Shown piece after piece: positions 2,213 through 15,701 of a DNA stretch of 64,000 nt (positions are counted from its first letter, which is position 1; the number at the start of each line of letters is the position of its first letter). Source of the DNA: an uncultured Gammaproteobacteria bacterium (lineage in GTDB: Bacteria > Patescibacteriota > Microgenomatia > UBA1406 > GWC2-37-13); the NCBI GenBank assembly GCA_964396395.1, contig CAYNFC010000007.1, positions 299 to 64,298 on the forward strand, given 5' to 3'. The position numbers were made by a program, and so were the translations under genes. The notes below the pieces were generated by a model, which was given only the letters and a program-made list of their open reading frames with translations, did not search any database and had not been told where the DNA came from.

Positions 2213-3139
2213 ATGGATGGAGTTACCGATGCTCCCTTTCGTTATATTACCGATGTTTATGGAAAACCTGACATTATTTATACGGAGTTTATTTCTGTTA
2301 AAGGCTTAATACTTGGCAAACCAGCCATCAATCGCATGCTCCTTAAACACAAAACCGATACGTTTACTGTAGCTCAATTTTTTGGGACGGAGCCGGAATA
2401 TTTTTATCAGGCGGCACTAGTCGCCCTGGAAAAAGGATTTGACGGAGTTGATATTAATATGGGTTGTCCGGATAGAAGCGTCTTTAATCGGGGAGGAGGA
2501 GCAGGATTAATTTTACAACCAAAACTTGCTAAAGAAATTATTTTATCGGTCAAAAAGGCCGTCAAAGAAGGAATAAAAAAATTTAAAATAAAAAAAGATA
2601 TTACAGTTTCGGTCAAAACCAGAACCGGTTATAGGGAACATAAGACAAAAGAATGGATAAACAATTTGTTGGAGGCAGAGCCGGACGTTATTTGTATTCA
2701 TGCCCGGACTTTTGCCCAGAAATATTCGGGCCTAGCTGATTGGAGCCAAATAGGAATTTCAGCTGAAATAGCCAAAAAAACCAAGACAAAAATATTTGGC
2801 AATGGAGATATAAAAAGTCGATCTGCAGCATTGGATAAAATTAAAGAATATGATCTGGCTGGAGTTTTGATTGGTCGAGCGGCATTAGGGAATCCTTGGA
2901 TATTCAAAGGAGTAATTCCATCAACTGTTGAGAGATTCAAAGTATTATTGGAGCACTGCAAAAAATTTACAGAATTTTTTCCGTCAGCTGACCTAAGCAT
3001 TATGAGAAAACATTTGGCCTGGTATGTAAAGGATTTTTATCATGCCGCTGAAGTTAGGAACGAACTGATGCAGGTAAATAGTGTTGATGACGTGAAAAAA
3101 ATATTATCGAAAATTATCTCCTCCACGGTCGTAGCATAG
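2213..3139 (+). CDS. tRNA-dihydrouridine synthase
   Basis: 308-aa ORF starting MDGVTDAPFR, with GVDINMGCP. These are classic Dus motifs. The upstream in-frame GLAP is also Dus-like, but no ATG/GTG/TTG start is available there, so the N-terminus is uncertain. Confidence 0.85.
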   Translation: MDGVTDAPFRYITDVYGKPDIIYTEFISVKGLILGKPAINRMLLKHKTDTFTVAQFFGTEPEYFYQAALVALEKGFDGVDINMGCPDRSVFNRGGGAGLILQPKLAKEIILSVKKAVKEGIKKFKIKKDITVSVKTRTGYREHKTKEWINNLLEAEPDVICIHARTFAQKYSGLADWSQIGISAEIAKKTKTKIFGNGDIKSRSAALDKIKEYDLAGVLIGRAALGNPWIFKGVIPSTVERFKVLLEHCKKFTEFFPSADLSIMRKHLAWYVKDFYHAAEVRNELMQVNSVDDVKKILSKIISSTVVA

Positions 3140-11786: not shown

Positions 11787-11859
11787 TCCCCTGTAGCTCA
11801 ATTGGTAGAGCAGGTCCCTGTTAAGGACAAGGTTACTGGTTCGAGTCCAGTCGGGGGAG
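11787..11859 (+). tRNA. tRNA-Asn (GTT)
   Basis: 73-nt cloverleaf folded by hand. Acceptor TCCCCTG/CGGGGGA, D arm GCTC-AATTGGTA-GAGC, anticodon loop CTGTTAA, T arm ACTGG-TTCGAGT-CCAGT. No encoded CCA. Confidence 0.85.
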
Positions 11860-11860
11860 C

Positions 11861-11922
11861 CTGGAGAATGATATTATAGCCTCATAAATTACAGGACCGA
11901 ATGGTTCTAAGCCGATATTGAG
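11861..11922 (+). repeat. direct repeat, left copy, abutting the tRNA-Asn 3' end
   Basis: ctggagaatgatattatagcctcataaattacaggaccgaatggttctaagccgatattgag aligns with 14485-14548 at roughly 70 percent identity by eye. Confidence 0.65.
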
Positions 11923-12340: not shown

Positions 12341-13867
12341 GTGAAGAAGTCTTTCATAATTCTTACATTAGTAAAATTTTCAACACTTTTTTTATTCTCT
12401 TATTTCCTAGTCAAACTTCTGGTTCCGGGTAAAGTCCAGGCATATACCCAGCAAGATTGCGTTAACATAGCAATGAATTGCGCAACGAGATGTATAAATT
12501 CAGTAAACGTTAAAAACATAAACATTAATAACCTTAATGCAGTAAGTGATGCATGTGCACAAAATTGTATTAATGAAATAACGGCTTATTGTGGAAATAT
12601 CGGCAATACACAACCACAGGTACAACAACCACAAGAAGAGCAACCGCAAAAATCTCAAGAACAACTGCCTACAGCCATTCCGCAGGAATCTTTACTCAAA
12701 ACAGCAATAAAAGGACAATACTATGAGGAGCCTTTATCGGATGAGCTAGTTGCATTATTAGGACCCGATAGTTCCGGAGGTCCTTATACTTTTGACCTCG
12801 ATACGATGGGCGGATTTCCTCCCATGGGTCTTATTCTGGGACCCGATGGTGTGTTAAGGGGTACACCGACGGGGAAAGACAGTAAGTTCAGGGCGTGTGT
12901 CAAAGACGCGGGTGGAAATACTGCCTGTAAAGTAATCAATATTGATGTGAAAAAGGAAGGTGAGTCGGAGTTTGTTGTACCCGGAAATTTTCACCTCACG
13001 GAATTAGCATACAATAATTTAACCTACGGTAAACAGTTTCAATCGAGTCAATACGAGCGGGTTGTGATCAAGATGCCCGATGGTTCACTGATGCACATGG
13101 ATATGGGTTCCATGGTTACTCCGGTTTCGGATTATGAAGTGAAAAGTGACACTGGCAGATTCATGTATGATTATAAACCTGCCTCGGGGGGAGGTTGCGG
13201 CCCTATCGGACAGAGTCCGACGTGGGCTTGCCGTCAGGTTGATGCGCGCGACGCAACGTTGAGGGTAAAAGGTACGCAATTTGCGGTTGATACTGATAGA
13301 TACGGCACAAACATTATCGTTATGAAGGGAGTATTGAGCGTATCTGACCCAAACGGCAATAAGACCGTTGAAGTTGCCGGAGGCCAGTACACCTATATAG
13401 CAAAAGGGGGGCTCCCGACCGATCCGCAGTCGTTTGATACCTCTCAAGTTGATTTCTGGTGGAAAGAAAAAACCGCTGAACAGATCAAGAGCGAAAAAAT
13501 TATTAGTTATATGGCTATTTTTCTGGTAGGGTTGTTCTTTATACTTTTTATTAAGGGCAAGCAAATTTGGCTAAACAGGTCAAAAATAATAGAAATAATA
13601 ATCGCAAACTGCTACGAACTTCTTGCTGTTATGGCATTTCTTATCGGATGTGTTGCTGTGGCCGTCCCACTAAACTTGTATGGAGGATTTTTCCCTCTTC
13701 CGCTTCCAATACTTAATTTTGTAACTTCCACCGCCTTCTTTGCAGTAAAAATGGCTGGATTAATCTTTGGAATCATTGCATTCAAATCGTCAAAAAAGAG
13801 TTTTGCTATTTTTATAATTATAATAAATATAGTTGGAATTATTTTGGGACTATGGTTCGGTTTTTAG
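12341..13867 (+). CDS. FecR-domain-like protein with Cys-rich N-terminus and polytopic C-terminal membrane domain
   Basis: 508-aa ORF with a GTG start and a signal-like N-terminus. The central segment LRVKGTQFAVDTD...VMKGVLSV...VEVAGGQYTYI resembles FecR/sigma-regulator beta-rich domains. There are about 4 C-terminal TM helices. The central 12.7-13.45 kb is visibly more GC-rich than its surroundings. Confidence 0.55.
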   Translation: MKKSFIILTLVKFSTLFLFSYFLVKLLVPGKVQAYTQQDCVNIAMNCATRCINSVNVKNININNLNAVSDACAQNCINEITAYCGNIGNTQPQVQQPQEEQPQKSQEQLPTAIPQESLLKTAIKGQYYEEPLSDELVALLGPDSSGGPYTFDLDTMGGFPPMGLILGPDGVLRGTPTGKDSKFRACVKDAGGNTACKVINIDVKKEGESEFVVPGNFHLTELAYNNLTYGKQFQSSQYERVVIKMPDGSLMHMDMGSMVTPVSDYEVKSDTGRFMYDYKPASGGGCGPIGQSPTWACRQVDARDATLRVKGTQFAVDTDRYGTNIIVMKGVLSVSDPNGNKTVEVAGGQYTYIAKGGLPTDPQSFDTSQVDFWWKEKTAEQIKSEKIISYMAIFLVGLFFILFIKGKQIWLNRSKIIEIIIANCYELLAVMAFLIGCVAVAVPLNLYGGFFPLPLPILNFVTSTAFFAVKMAGLIFGIIAFKSSKKSFAIFIIIINIVGIILGLWFGF

Positions 13868-14440: not shown

Positions 14441-14484
14441 GATATTAATTGTAACAAACCATTAATAATTCTTTACATCGTAGT

Positions 14485-14548
14485 CTGGAGAATATAACCA
14501 TAACCTCTTTAATTACAGGATCAAACGGGTCTAGACCGACACGCTGAG
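14485..14548 (+). repeat. direct repeat, right copy
   Basis: ctggagaatataaccataacctctttaattacaggatcaaacgggtctagaccgacacgctgag. Partner of 11861-11922. Confidence 0.65.
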
Positions 14549-14653
14549 CCAAATAGGACTTAATATAACCAATATCCACAAAATACTCCTTGACAAATCG
14601 TCTCAAAATGATACGATTTTATCATAAAAAACAGAACTCCTCATAAAAACACT

Positions 14654-14692
14654 TGCATAGATTTGCATAGATATGTTAAAATATACATAGAT
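14654..14692 (+). promoter_or_regulatory. tandem TGCATAGAT repeats overlapping a promoter-like TTGCAT-18-TAAAAT
   Basis: TGCATAGAT at 14654-14662 and 14664-14672, and ACATAGAT at 14685-14692. TTGCAT (14653) and TAAAAT (14677) are 18 nt apart. The whole region lies 15-55 nt upstream of the 14707 ATG. Confidence 0.45.
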
Positions 14693-14706
14693 TTAAATAT
14701 ACAACT

Positions 14707-15438
14707 ATGCATAAATTATTATCAATCGGACAAACCGCCGAACTATTAGGTGTATCTATTGATACTCTCAGACGATGGGATTCTGCCGGCCGTTTACGCT
14801 CCATCCGCAGTGGCCCAAGAGGTCATCGGTTTTATAATAGGTCAGACATTGATCAATATCTGCAAGAAATTGACACCATAGCTTTAAATTGGGCAAAATC
14901 TACCAATCCAACCGTGCCTAACACTGATGTTTACTGCCAAACTCGTGATGTATTTCAAGCCAGACTGGAAAAATTTCAATCAGAGTTAAGTAAAATCGTA
15001 TCAATTAAAATAGTTTCTTTAATTACGGCAGTTGCCGGCGAGATTGGAAATAATTCATTTGATCATAATTTGGGAAATTGGTCAGATATTCCCGGTATTT
15101 TTTTCTCATATGCTATCAGAAATAGGAAAGTAGTATTAGCAGATCGTGGTCAAGGCATATTGACAACATTGAAGAGAGTACGCACAGAACTGGTAAATTC
15201 TAGTGAAGCAATGAAAGTGGCATTTACTGAAAAAATATCCGGAAGATATCCAGAAATGAGAGGAAATGGGTTGAAGTTTGTAAGATCAATTATTGTGGAA
15301 AATCCATTTTCAATACATTTTCAAACAGGAAATGCTCAGCTATACTTAAAAAAGGATGACGTTGAACTAAATATTCAACAAACTAACACAATTATTCAAG
15401 GATGTTTTGCGCTTATAAGTTTTGAAGAGTTGATATGA
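14707..15438 (+). CDS. MerR/excisionase-type HTH fused to a GHKL (SpoIIAB/RsbW-like) ATPase domain
   Basis: 243-aa ORF. N-terminal LLSIGQTAELLGVSIDTLRRWDSAGRL is an HTH_17/MerR helix-turn-helix. The C-terminal part carries an N-box (GEIGNNSFDHN), G1 (ADRGQGI) and G2-like (RGNGLKF) motifs of histidine-kinase-like ATPases. Confidence 0.7.
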   Translation: MHKLLSIGQTAELLGVSIDTLRRWDSAGRLRSIRSGPRGHRFYNRSDIDQYLQEIDTIALNWAKSTNPTVPNTDVYCQTRDVFQARLEKFQSELSKIVSIKIVSLITAVAGEIGNNSFDHNLGNWSDIPGIFFSYAIRNRKVVLADRGQGILTTLKRVRTELVNSSEAMKVAFTEKISGRYPEMRGNGLKFVRSIIVENPFSIHFQTGNAQLYLKKDDVELNIQQTNTIIQGCFALISFEELI

Positions 15439-15701
15439 ATATTGAATTAAAAAAATTTGGAACAACTCTTGTCTCACGTCCAGCTGGGAAAGAAGCATGG
15501 TTAGCTTTTCAGCCTGTATTAAAAGGGATACCACCAGGTGAAAAAATTATTGTAAATTTTGATGGAGTAGTTGTCTTAACACCCTCTTGGGCAGATGAGT
15601 TTTTAACTCCTCTTAGAAATAATTTTAAAGATAAAGTTAATTTGATCAACACTAATAATCCATCTGTGGAAGCAACCTTGTCAATTTTAGATCGACCTTG
15701 A
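15435..15701 (+). CDS. STAS-like (DUF4325-type) small protein
   Basis: 88-aa ORF overlapping the upstream gene by ATGA. ...LVSRPAGKEAW...IIVNFDGVVVLTPSWADEFL matches the STAS-like anti-anti-sigma-type fold family that usually pairs with GHKL ATPases. Confidence 0.65.
   Translation: MNIELKKFGTTLVSRPAGKEAWLAFQPVLKGIPPGEKIIVNFDGVVVLTPSWADEFLTPLRNNFKDKVNLINTNNPSVEATLSILDRP

Follow-up and report, generated by a model that had tools for sequence, protein, structure and literature searches.

A putative autorepressing switch of Patescibacteria combines a DNA-binding GHKL kinase-like protein with a STAS-like partner

Patescibacteria (Candidate Phyla Radiation, CPR) account for a substantial part of bacterial diversity. 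Hardly any have been cultured, and their very small genomes encode few regulators that can be recognised; to our knowledge, almost nothing is known about the control of transcription in these organisms. A 64,000-nucleotide stretch of contig CAYNFC010000007.1 (referred to below as the window) contains a pair of overlapping genes that brings this question to a single locus. Gene 1 encodes a protein in which a MerR/excisionase-type helix-turn-helix (HTH) is joined to a small GHKL ATPase/kinase-like domain, while gene 2 encodes a STAS-like protein; the database labels available for the module are “hypothetical”, “MerR-family”, and “STAS-like” only. A small single-domain GHKL protein and a STAS protein with a conserved Ser are the hallmark of the SpoIIAB/SpoIIAA and RsbW/RsbV modules. 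What, then, does such a pair do when its kinase-like member carries a DNA-binding domain? The answer that we favour, with somewhat better than even confidence, is that the locus is an autorepressing, DNA-tethered Ser-kinase/STAS switch, self-contained and specific to Patescibacteria.

The link between gene 1 and DNA was studied by comparing 80 non-redundant upstream regions (120 nt before the start codon), in which forward sites similar to a 9-mer, TGCATAGAT, were counted with up to one mismatch; 4000 windows from the same loci served as the control. At least two forward TGCATAGAT-like sites were present in 65 of the 80 loci compared with 1.3% of control windows, and at least three were present in 43 loci compared with 0.8% of control windows. 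Site matches were mostly in the forward orientation (191 forward, 21 reverse), and spacings of 10, 20, and 21 bp accounted for 99 of the 117 intervals between sites. The operator-promoter consensus of Microgenomates loci, cTTGCATAGATtTgCATAGATaTGgTAtAATaTGCATAGATT, lies ~20 nt before the ATG. The cTTGCATAGAT layout, with the −35 element within repeat 1, is conserved in these loci, and the aTGgTAtAAT element between repeats 2 and 3 is kept in related loci; the conserved layout spans the −35 element, the extended −10 element, and position +1.

At the window locus, the spacer between TTGCAT and TAAAAT is 18 nt long (Table 1). A promoter consensus scan did not list TTGCAT, because only three of its six positions match TTGACA. 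The extended −10 element, TGTTAAAAT, may itself be a degenerate fourth operator site (five of nine positions match), while the copy at the start codon, TGCATAAAT, probably arises by chance from the codons ATG-CAT-AAA. Over the 64-kb window as a whole, the 9-mer shows no enrichment (11 matches, with 13.5 expected); it is the phased cluster that is unique there, and no other phased pair was found in the window even when two mismatches per site were allowed. All 153 phased site pairs detected in 898 kb of loci and the window lie upstream of gene 1, at one position. A regulon search in the window and 84 flanks revealed no second operator cluster. A candidate regulon obtained by scanning metagenome contigs for exact TGCATAGATNTGCATAGAT was rejected: among 120 loci, 32 of the 108 that could be evaluated precede gene 1, and the rest are DNA of mixed G+C content (GC, 0.32–0.72), tandem-repeat DNA, or eukaryote-like DNA.

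The presence of the repeats goes together with the type of DNA-binding domain that is attached to the ATPase. None of six loci encoding a stand-alone ATPase domain, and not the one locus inspected in which the domain is fused to a winged HTH (wHTH), carries the repeats upstream. HTH_24-fused members (L209, positions 2880–3000; also L210) have a palindrome, ATAGTTTATA...TATAAACTAT, over a TTGACA/TATAAT promoter, and no direct repeats. Judging from these upstream sequences, the type of operator appears to change together with the DNA-binding head.

The correspondence extends to individual residues. The recognition helix of the gene 1 HTH reads S17-I-D19-T-L-R-R23-W, and residues 19 and 23 are located within helix 18–26 of the structural model, which is the second helix of the HTH. 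When residue 19 is D, operator bases 3–4 are CA in 51 of 54 loci; when it is Q, they are TA in 9 of 13 loci (with T at base 3 in 11 of 13). N at this position is accompanied by GG in two of three loci, and S or T by AG in two of two. Residue 23 varies with operator base 2, R being found with G in 62 of 68 loci and E, K, or Q with A in all four loci that have them. Clustering of the ATPase domains indicated that the N-type loci (L029, L063) and the S/T-type loci (L044, L080) each represent at least two independent origins of the same switch, with the same operator change. Based on cross-genome conservation of the repeats, their co-occurrence with this HTH type, and the amino acid/base covariation, binding of the gene 1 HTH to the TGCATAGAT repeats is well supported at the level of sequence comparison. 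Since the repeats cover the core promoter, the arrangement implies that gene 1 would repress its own two-gene operon. An earlier note on this DNA had proposed that the repeats overlapping TTGCAT-18-TAAAAT are an operator and that the kinase-like protein is connected to DNA directly; both proposals are supported, the former by the three lines of evidence above. BldC of Streptomyces forms head-to-tail multimers on arrays of direct repeats that vary in number (Schumacher et al. 2018, PMC5859096), and the direct repeats with 10, 20, or 21-bp phasing, together with the covariation, fit this mode of binding.

Several loci depart from the common arrangement. In one of them (L153, 2822–4284; L097 is alike), a gene 2-like open reading frame (ORF) and a gene for a 350-amino acid (aa) protein, whose N-terminal region is winged-helix-like, diverge from an intervening TGCATAGAT pair, and there is no gene 1. 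In another (L172, 1–1670), an TGCATAGATTTGCATAGAT pair adjoins the gene for a 508-aa protein with a homologous N-terminal MerR/excisionase HTH (SIDTVRRW), and the repeat motif may thus be read by a wider subfamily of such HTHs. On two metagenome contigs (L110, 488–840; L196, 3117–3446), the operator repeats lead directly into the final ~12 codons of gene 1, with intact gene 2 behind them, while on a third (L192, 5888–6070) they run directly into the interior of gene 2; either gene 1 has been naturally deleted in these loci or the assemblies are chimeric. Many homologues (P0004, P0005, P0008; loci L011, L012, L014) are 251–252 aa long, with an N-terminus, “MHRF...”, that corresponds to in-frame operator repeat 3 (ATG CAT AGA TTT). 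Such extensions are probably start-codon mis-calls that take in the operator; repeat 3 of the window reads TACATAGAT, and hence there is no such upstream ATG (14684–14706). In some loci outside Microgenomates (L045, L046), TATAAT is found 6–7 nt before the ATG, and the repeats are upstream of the −10 element, not around it, an arrangement that would imply a leaderless operon mRNA.

The positions of both ORFs, their ATGA overlap, and the N-box, G1, and G2 motifs are all as the earlier note had placed them. Residues 4–54 of gene 1 were matched by Pfam as MerR/HTH_17/MerR_1 (E about 1e-10; PF00376 and PF13411 above threshold) and by the NCBIfam excisionase-type HTH profile TIGR01764 (34.1 bits, cut-off 28.8), with NCBIfam HTH_BldC at 32.1 bits, below its cut-off of 77. 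A Foldseek comparison of the model with structures in the PDB matched the HTH to BldC (6ama) with a template modelling (TM) score of 0.81 to the target and 35% identity. After the HTH wing, the model contains no long helix, and there is neither a coiled coil nor a C-terminal effector pocket. The HTH and the GHKL domain are separated by ~45 helical residues, with no internal STAS domain; a motif within this segment (aa 55–99), YCxTRDxFxARL, is found family-wide, stand-alone members included.

The assignment of the C-terminal part of gene 1 relied on structure prediction and on the relatives of the window protein. Residues 60–243 had no match in Pfam, NCBIfam, or PADLOC profiles, and searches of PDB sequences with the single gene 1 protein and with two family profiles returned MerR-type HTHs alone and nothing for the ATPase domain. 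An AlphaFold2 model of gene 1, built with 30 homologues, had a predicted local distance difference test (pLDDT) score of 85 and a predicted TM score (pTM) of 0.74. In its C-terminal part a helix is followed by two strands, helices, and two long strands. Low confidence was limited to aa ~121–130 and to a segment preceding the G2 box, the latter as expected for the ATP lid in the modelled fold. Apart from the HTH, the model was matched by Foldseek almost exclusively to GHKL nucleotide-binding domains, namely the ATPase domains of TRAP1/Hsp90, African swine fever virus (ASFV) topoisomerase II, and GyrB (probability 0.9–1.0, E 5e-4 to 4e-3); the TM scores to these GHKL targets are low, about 0.3, because query and targets alike comprise several domains. 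Among 89 diverse gene 1 relatives that were aligned, N-box residues G111, E112, N116, D119, H120, and N121 are each at least 90% conserved, and weak Pfam matches appear among the relatives (HATPase_c in 10 of 89, best E 4e-5; HATPase_c_2 in 8 of 89, best E 6e-4). Based on the Foldseek matches of the model, the weak HATPase matches in relatives, and the invariant motif residues, assignment of a GHKL fold to this domain is correct as far as the predicted structure goes, and so is the reading of its motifs. Of the profiles named in the earlier note, HTH_17 and DUF4325 were matched but HATPase_c was not matched in the window protein: the gene 1 family is a divergent GHKL branch outside the coverage of current profiles.

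Gene 2 is likely to be translationally coupled to gene 1 through the ATGA overlap. Its product belongs to DUF4325 (PF14213, STAS clan; 32.3 bits, cut-off 23 in Pfam), and PF14213 was matched on nearly all homologues. The model (pLDDT 89.6) has the beta-beta-alpha1-beta-alpha2-beta-alpha3 order of STAS domains, and its top Foldseek matches are STAS domains (MlaB, prestin, SULTR, stressosome proteins, and anti-sigma antagonists; TM 0.5–0.66) with weak E-values, as is usual at this domain size. A PDB sequence search with gene 2 returned no match. With 88 aa, the protein is a STAS core alone, without any extension. The V-L-T-P-S51-W-A-D-E-F segment is strongly conserved in homologues, and Pro50, Ser51, and Asp54 are invariant in 115 of 115 unique sequences. 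In the model, Ser51 is at the N-terminus of helix 50–67 (alpha2), a position which, by analogy, matches the phospho-serine site of SpoIIAA-type proteins (SpoIIAA, RsbV, CapS, VapS). The proposed architecture of an HTH plus a small GHKL domain with a STAS-like DUF4325 partner is thus supported by Pfam, AlphaFold2/Foldseek, and the invariant motifs.

Table 1. Features of the operator, promoter, and gene pair in the window.
Feature	Coordinates	Strand	Remarks
−35-like hexamer TTGCAT, inside operator repeat 1	14653–14658	+	3/6 positions as in TTGACA
Operator repeat 1, TGCATAGAT	14654–14662	+	−53 from ATG, as in most Microgenomates loci
Operator repeat 2, TGCATAGAT	14664–14672	+	10 bp after repeat 1, in promoter spacer; −43
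Extended −10 element, TGTTAAAAT (TGnTAnAAT)	14674–14682	+	TG 14674–14675, TAAAAT 14677–14682; in phase with repeats
Operator repeat 3, TACATAGAT	14684–14692	+	20 bp after repeat 2, over expected transcription start; −23
Fourth copy, TGCATAAAT, at start codon	14708–14716	+	off-phase (24 bp); +1 match in 2/80 loci only
Gene 1, HTH-GHKL protein	14707–15438	+	243 aa
Gene 1 aa 4–54, MerR/excisionase-type winged HTH, BldC-like, without coiled coil	14716–14868	+	Pfam, TIGR01764, Foldseek
Gene 1 aa 55–99, helical linker and N-terminal helix of ATPase domain	14869–15003	+	secondary structure of model
Gene 1 aa 100–243, small single-domain GHKL (Bergerat-fold) ATPase/kinase-like domain	15004–15435	+	Foldseek, HATPase matches in relatives, BLASTP to CapK
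N-box GEIGNNSFDHN (aa 111–121; E112, N116, D119, H120)	15037–15069	+	conservation; in register with SpoIIAB and CapK
G1 box DRGQGI (aa 146–151; D146, G148, G150)	15142–15159	+	invariant in 89 diverse members
G2 box RGNGLKF (aa 185–191; R185–L189)	15259–15279	+	R185-G-N-G-L189 invariant in 89 diverse members
Gene 2, STAS-like protein (DUF4325)	15435–15701	+	88 aa; start overlaps gene 1 stop as ATGA
Ser51 codon of gene 2, putative phospho-acceptor	15585–15587	+	motif P-S-W-x-D-E-F; N-terminus of helix alpha2

The two genes occur together throughout the family loci compared. In 84 of 84 cases, gene 2 is encoded immediately 3' of gene 1 and in the same orientation, with a gap of −37 to +25 nt, one start-call outlier aside. 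The closest 120 homologues of each protein are 67–90% identical to it; the named ones are all from Roizmanbacteria, Levybacteria, or other Patescibacteria, with adjacent locus tags. In a scan of one genome per GTDB species, the pair was present in at least 590 species-level genomes, and all informatively named records are Patescibacteria; the best 80 of these come from Microgenomates, Parcubacteria, Peregrinibacteria, Gracilibacteria, and Saccharibacteria-labelled bins. Identity decreases from about 80% in Roizmanbacteria to 57–73% in other Microgenomates and 51–56% elsewhere, as expected for vertical inheritance. Many third-party annotation (TPA) “binchicken” assemblies (L010, L011, L015, L018, and others) titled “uncultured Gammaproteobacteria” or “Pseudomonadales” carry a near-identical Microgenomates-type pair; by their sequences, they are probably mislabelled Patescibacteria bins. 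The literature yielded nothing relevant on DUF4325 (PF14213), STAS-like/GHKL pairs, or Patescibacteria anti-sigma factor antagonists. The earlier note had allowed for a widespread, already characterised regulator; the pair is indeed widespread across Patescibacteria, but the module is uncharacterised as well as lineage-wide.

The ATPase domain has a wider distribution than its fusion to the MerR-type HTH. When aa 60–243 of gene 1 were compared with 1.84 billion representative proteins, only 310 clusters matched. In these, the domain is fused to a MerR-type HTH (about 245 aa in all), to an HTH_24/MarR/HTH_11 winged helix (about 250–259 aa), or to HTH_3, or stands alone (about 190–200 aa). The stand-alone and wHTH-fused members are from Patescibacteria too, and bear the database name “hypothetical”. 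Since a DUF4325 gene is located directly 3' of stand-alone and wHTH-fused members in every case examined, the invariant core, as seen in these sequences, is GHKL plus DUF4325, and on several occasions a DNA-binding head has been joined to this core. That GHKL and DUF4325 pairs exist without such a head argues that the core activity does not depend on DNA, while the recurrent attachment of unrelated DNA-binding domains points to DNA as a frequent output or platform. On a Roizmanbacteria contig (L009, 3397–4359), a 320-aa ORF located 2.3 kb upstream of the pair has a weak match to the family profile (E=2.4e-11) and may be a fused paralogue. One 320-aa family representative carries a cytidylyltransferase-like domain.

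The closest characterised sequence relative of gene 1 is CapK, a 368-aa HTH-STAS-GHKL Ser kinase activated by single-stranded DNA, which it senses in a STAS/GHKL groove (Chambers et al., EMBO J 2026, PMC13373217). CapK phosphorylates Ser54 of CapS, a STAS-wHTH repressor; as a result, the CapS dimer dissolves and adjacent immune operons are de-repressed (PMC13373217). VapK/VapS/VapC is a toxin-antitoxin version of this module (PMC13373217). The CapK and CapS sequences were taken from the source data of the same study. Gene 1 matched the CapK kinase domain by BLASTP (E=1e-4, 26% identity over 146 aa), with the N-box, G1-TTLKR, and G2 in register; the aligned motifs (CapK/gene 1) are SELIGNVRDHS/GEIGNNSFDHN, SDSGLGIATTLKR/ADRGQGILTTLKR, and ARGLGLK/MRGNGLK. 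The family profile aligned with CapK at hhalign E=3.9e-4 (probability 35%), and the gene 2 profile aligned with the CapS STAS domain at E=0.012, with Ser51 placed on CapS Ser54.

The switch that we propose would operate as follows. The BldC-like HTH of gene 1 would occupy three (possibly four) direct TGCATAGAT repeats head-to-tail, with 10 or 20 bp phasing. Located over the −35 element, the spacer and extended −10 element, and the transcription start, the bound protein would repress the two-gene operon. The GHKL domain, which is of the anti-sigma/CapK kinase type, is expected from homology to bind ATP. Gene 1 would bind gene 2 and use ATP to phosphorylate Ser51; we infer this step by analogy, because Ser51 is invariant and aligned with CapS Ser54 and the ATP-binding motifs are conserved. 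The state of the complex might then determine how the HTH-kinase oligomerises or occupies DNA, so that a signal would lead to de-repression, which is the least certain step of the scheme.

Several points weigh against this explanation. The covariation counts are partly inflated by shared ancestry, with the Q-type loci coming mostly from one clade and the E/K/Q23 loci from one clade. Gene 1 of the window is below the Pfam HATPase thresholds and resembles CapK only weakly (26% identity, hhalign probability 35%), and the family profile has no significant similarity to SpoIIAB (hhalign E=0.099, probability 0.6%; the B. subtilis SpoIIAB sequence was validated against PDB 1TIL). CapS is not scored as DUF4325 by Pfam. 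In the CapK/CapS system, the repressor is the STAS substrate, and deletion of the CapK HTH had no detected effect (PMC13373217). Because CapS is the DNA-binding repressor and the CapK HTH deletion is without phenotype, the analogy is silent on the role of a kinase-borne HTH. Finally, no phosphatase partner of the pair was identified.

A stronger form of the same idea can be considered, which we find possible but are inclined to doubt. In this form, the pair would be a Patescibacteria-wide master switch, with the Ser-kinase anchored to promoter DNA at all times in a BldC-like filament whose assembly is toggled by the STAS substrate and ATP, a sigma-independent “partner switching on DNA”. Since Patescibacteria have very few transcription factors, the pair could then be a main response regulator. 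If so, it would be one of the main environmental or host-association regulators of Patescibacteria, with further targets elsewhere in the genome, and the residue 19/residue 23 code would allow regulons to be predicted and re-engineered.

Among explanations that differ from the autorepressing switch in kind, the best surviving one, in our view unlikely, is that the STAS protein constitutes the true output. When unphosphorylated, gene 2 would bind and control an unlinked target (an enzyme, a toxin, or an anti-sigma factor), as SpoIIAA does with SpoIIAB and VapS with VapC, while the HTH would only provide negative feedback on operon dosage, its DNA binding not being modulated by the partner. In the relatives studied by experiment, it is the STAS protein that faces the effector (PMC13373217). 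Moreover, half of the family has no DNA-binding domain yet retains the GHKL and DUF4325 pair, so the conserved core function cannot require DNA binding, and no operator cluster was present in 898 kb beyond the promoter of the module itself. A dedicated target is, however, not apparent next to the pair: when flanking ORFs of the 84 loci were clustered, no third gene was conserved, and the next cluster comprised nine loci with antisense ORFs inside gene 2. Gene 2 also lacks an extension beyond its STAS core, whereas VapS ends in an inhibitory helix and CapS bears a wHTH. The fusion of unrelated DNA-binding domains (MerR-type, HTH_24/MarR, HTH_3) to the ATPase domain suggests that DNA is functionally central.

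The GHKL domain could also be an ATP-driven dimerisation clamp of the GyrB, MutL, Hsp90, or MORC type, with no kinase activity, joining DNA-bound protomers and regulated by the STAS protein only allosterically. The best Foldseek matches are indeed GHL-type ATPases (TRAP1/Hsp90, topoisomerase II, GyrB) and not kinases, and the N-box contains ExxxNxxD, as in GHL ATPases. The same N-box also fits the SpoIIAB pattern, ExxxNxxxH, however, and gene 1 has no transducer (second) domain, its 145-aa GHKL part being the size of SpoIIAB. The obligatory STAS partner with an invariant Ser at the canonical phosphosite, and the fact that CapK is a proven Ser kinase (PMC13373217), also disfavour a clamp, which we regard as improbable.

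Little credence, if anything less than to the clamp, can be given to a classical partner switch in which gene 1 is an anti-sigma factor that sequesters its sigma factor (possibly on DNA), gene 2 is an anti-anti-sigma factor, and the sigma factor is encoded elsewhere. A GHKL protein paired with a Ser-bearing STAS protein is what would be expected for SpoIIAB/SpoIIAA or RsbW/RsbV, the N-box and G1 box are in register with SpoIIAB (E46/N50/H54), and HATPase_c_2 was weakly matched in 8 of 89 relatives. The label “SpoIIAB/RsbW-like” used in the earlier note holds only loosely, since the hhalign E-value of 0.099 for SpoIIAB compares with 3.9e-4 for CapK, which acts without a sigma factor. As that note had observed, no sigma gene is found nearby: none adjoins the pair in any of the 84 loci, and the 64-kb window lacks genes of the sigma-70 and SpoIIAB-like types as well as any further copy of gene 1 or gene 2. 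The HTH with its co-varying operator offers a direct route to transcription without a sigma factor.

Least probable of all is a mobile toxin-antitoxin or anti-phage module, with the kinase as toxin or sensor and the STAS protein as antitoxin, autoregulated like HipBA or VapKSC: the pair is an overlapping, tightly autoregulated two-gene cassette in variable genomic contexts, some neighbours are of toxin-antitoxin or defence type (HigB/HigA, HEPN/NTase, a PIN-like gene), and CapK/CapS and VapKSC act in phage defence (PMC13373217), but no effector gene is conserved beside the pair, the only PADLOC match (PADLOC-DB v2) is of the HTH to mad1, with nothing for the GHKL domain or gene 2, tblastn with the ATPase domain found nothing among 50,697 phage and 72,556 plasmid records and a single match among 2.9 million viral contigs, identity is 67–87% for the nearest 120 relatives and declines with taxonomic distance as in vertical inheritance, and the window has a single copy with housekeeping flanks (CoaBC, RidA). 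The conflict-system sensor considered in the earlier note is disfavoured by the same data.

The surroundings of the pair are unremarkable. The neighbours in the window encode an FecR-domain membrane protein, CoaBC, a shikimate-kinase-like protein, a methyltransferase, and RidA, and the next gene after the pair, CoaBC, has its own promoter-like site. The pair had been placed at the edge of a tRNA-Asn islet, a placement that did not hold up: GC is flat and the neighbours are housekeeping genes, and between the tRNA-Asn (11787–11861, 2.8 kb upstream of the pair) and the pair there is no GC shift, integrase, or mobile-element gene. The same interval contains a 508-aa predicted membrane protein (12341–13867) with an FecR domain (E=8e-6) and a GC of 0.45, compared with about 0.33 around it. 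Most of the gap from the upstream 185-aa gene to the operator is filled by a 53-aa ORF on the minus strand (14445–14606) with no family match.

The module now has a defined operator, promoter architecture, and amino acid/base recognition code, and is thus among the few CPR regulators that can be tested in vitro without cultivation. The pair extends the CapK/CapS principle, a GHKL kinase and a STAS substrate with no sigma factor, by a DNA-binding domain on the kinase, and this kinase-borne HTH may shed light on the unexplained HTH of CapK.

Compared with known systems, gene 1 resembles classical MerR regulators (MerR, CueR, BmrR) in its N-terminal MerR-type HTH and its long (18-nt) promoter spacer, but it lacks their long antiparallel coiled coil and effector pocket, and its operator consists of direct repeats in place of a spacer palindrome. 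With BldC and Xis it shares the fold, the absence of a coiled-coil dimerisation helix, and several direct repeats at about one helical turn. BldC, however, is a stand-alone 68-aa protein that recognises AATT-N4-C repeats and has a large regulon (PMC5859096), whereas the gene 1 HTH is fused to an ATPase and, in the DNA examined, its TGCATAGAT repeats are found at its own promoter only. Like SpoIIAB/RsbW modules, the pair consists of a small GHKL protein and a STAS partner with a Ser at the N-terminus of helix alpha2. Unlike these modules, it has no linked sigma factor and no linked PP2C phosphatase, its GHKL protein bears an N-terminal DNA-binding domain, and gene 2 is in the DUF4325 branch, not in the STAS or STAS_2 branch.

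The closest parallel is CapK/CapS. In both systems, a gene for an HTH-bearing GHKL kinase (or kinase-like protein) is located directly upstream of a gene for a STAS protein with an absolutely conserved Ser, and transcription is controlled without a sigma factor through autoregulation of the module's own promoter, as predicted for the pair from its operator. CapK has a STAS domain between the HTH and GHKL domains (368 aa), which is missing from the shorter gene 1 protein (243 aa). CapS, which binds to palindromes, has a wHTH of its own, while gene 2 is a bare STAS domain, the sole HTH being on gene 1 and matched to direct repeats. CapKS is located upstream of immune operons in Proteobacteria (PMC13373217), while no gene beside the pair is conserved, no adjacent operon appears to be under its control, and its occurrence is limited to Patescibacteria. 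Thus, CapK/CapS and the gene 1–gene 2 pair would appear, from their sequences, to be distant relatives that use the same principle with different wiring.

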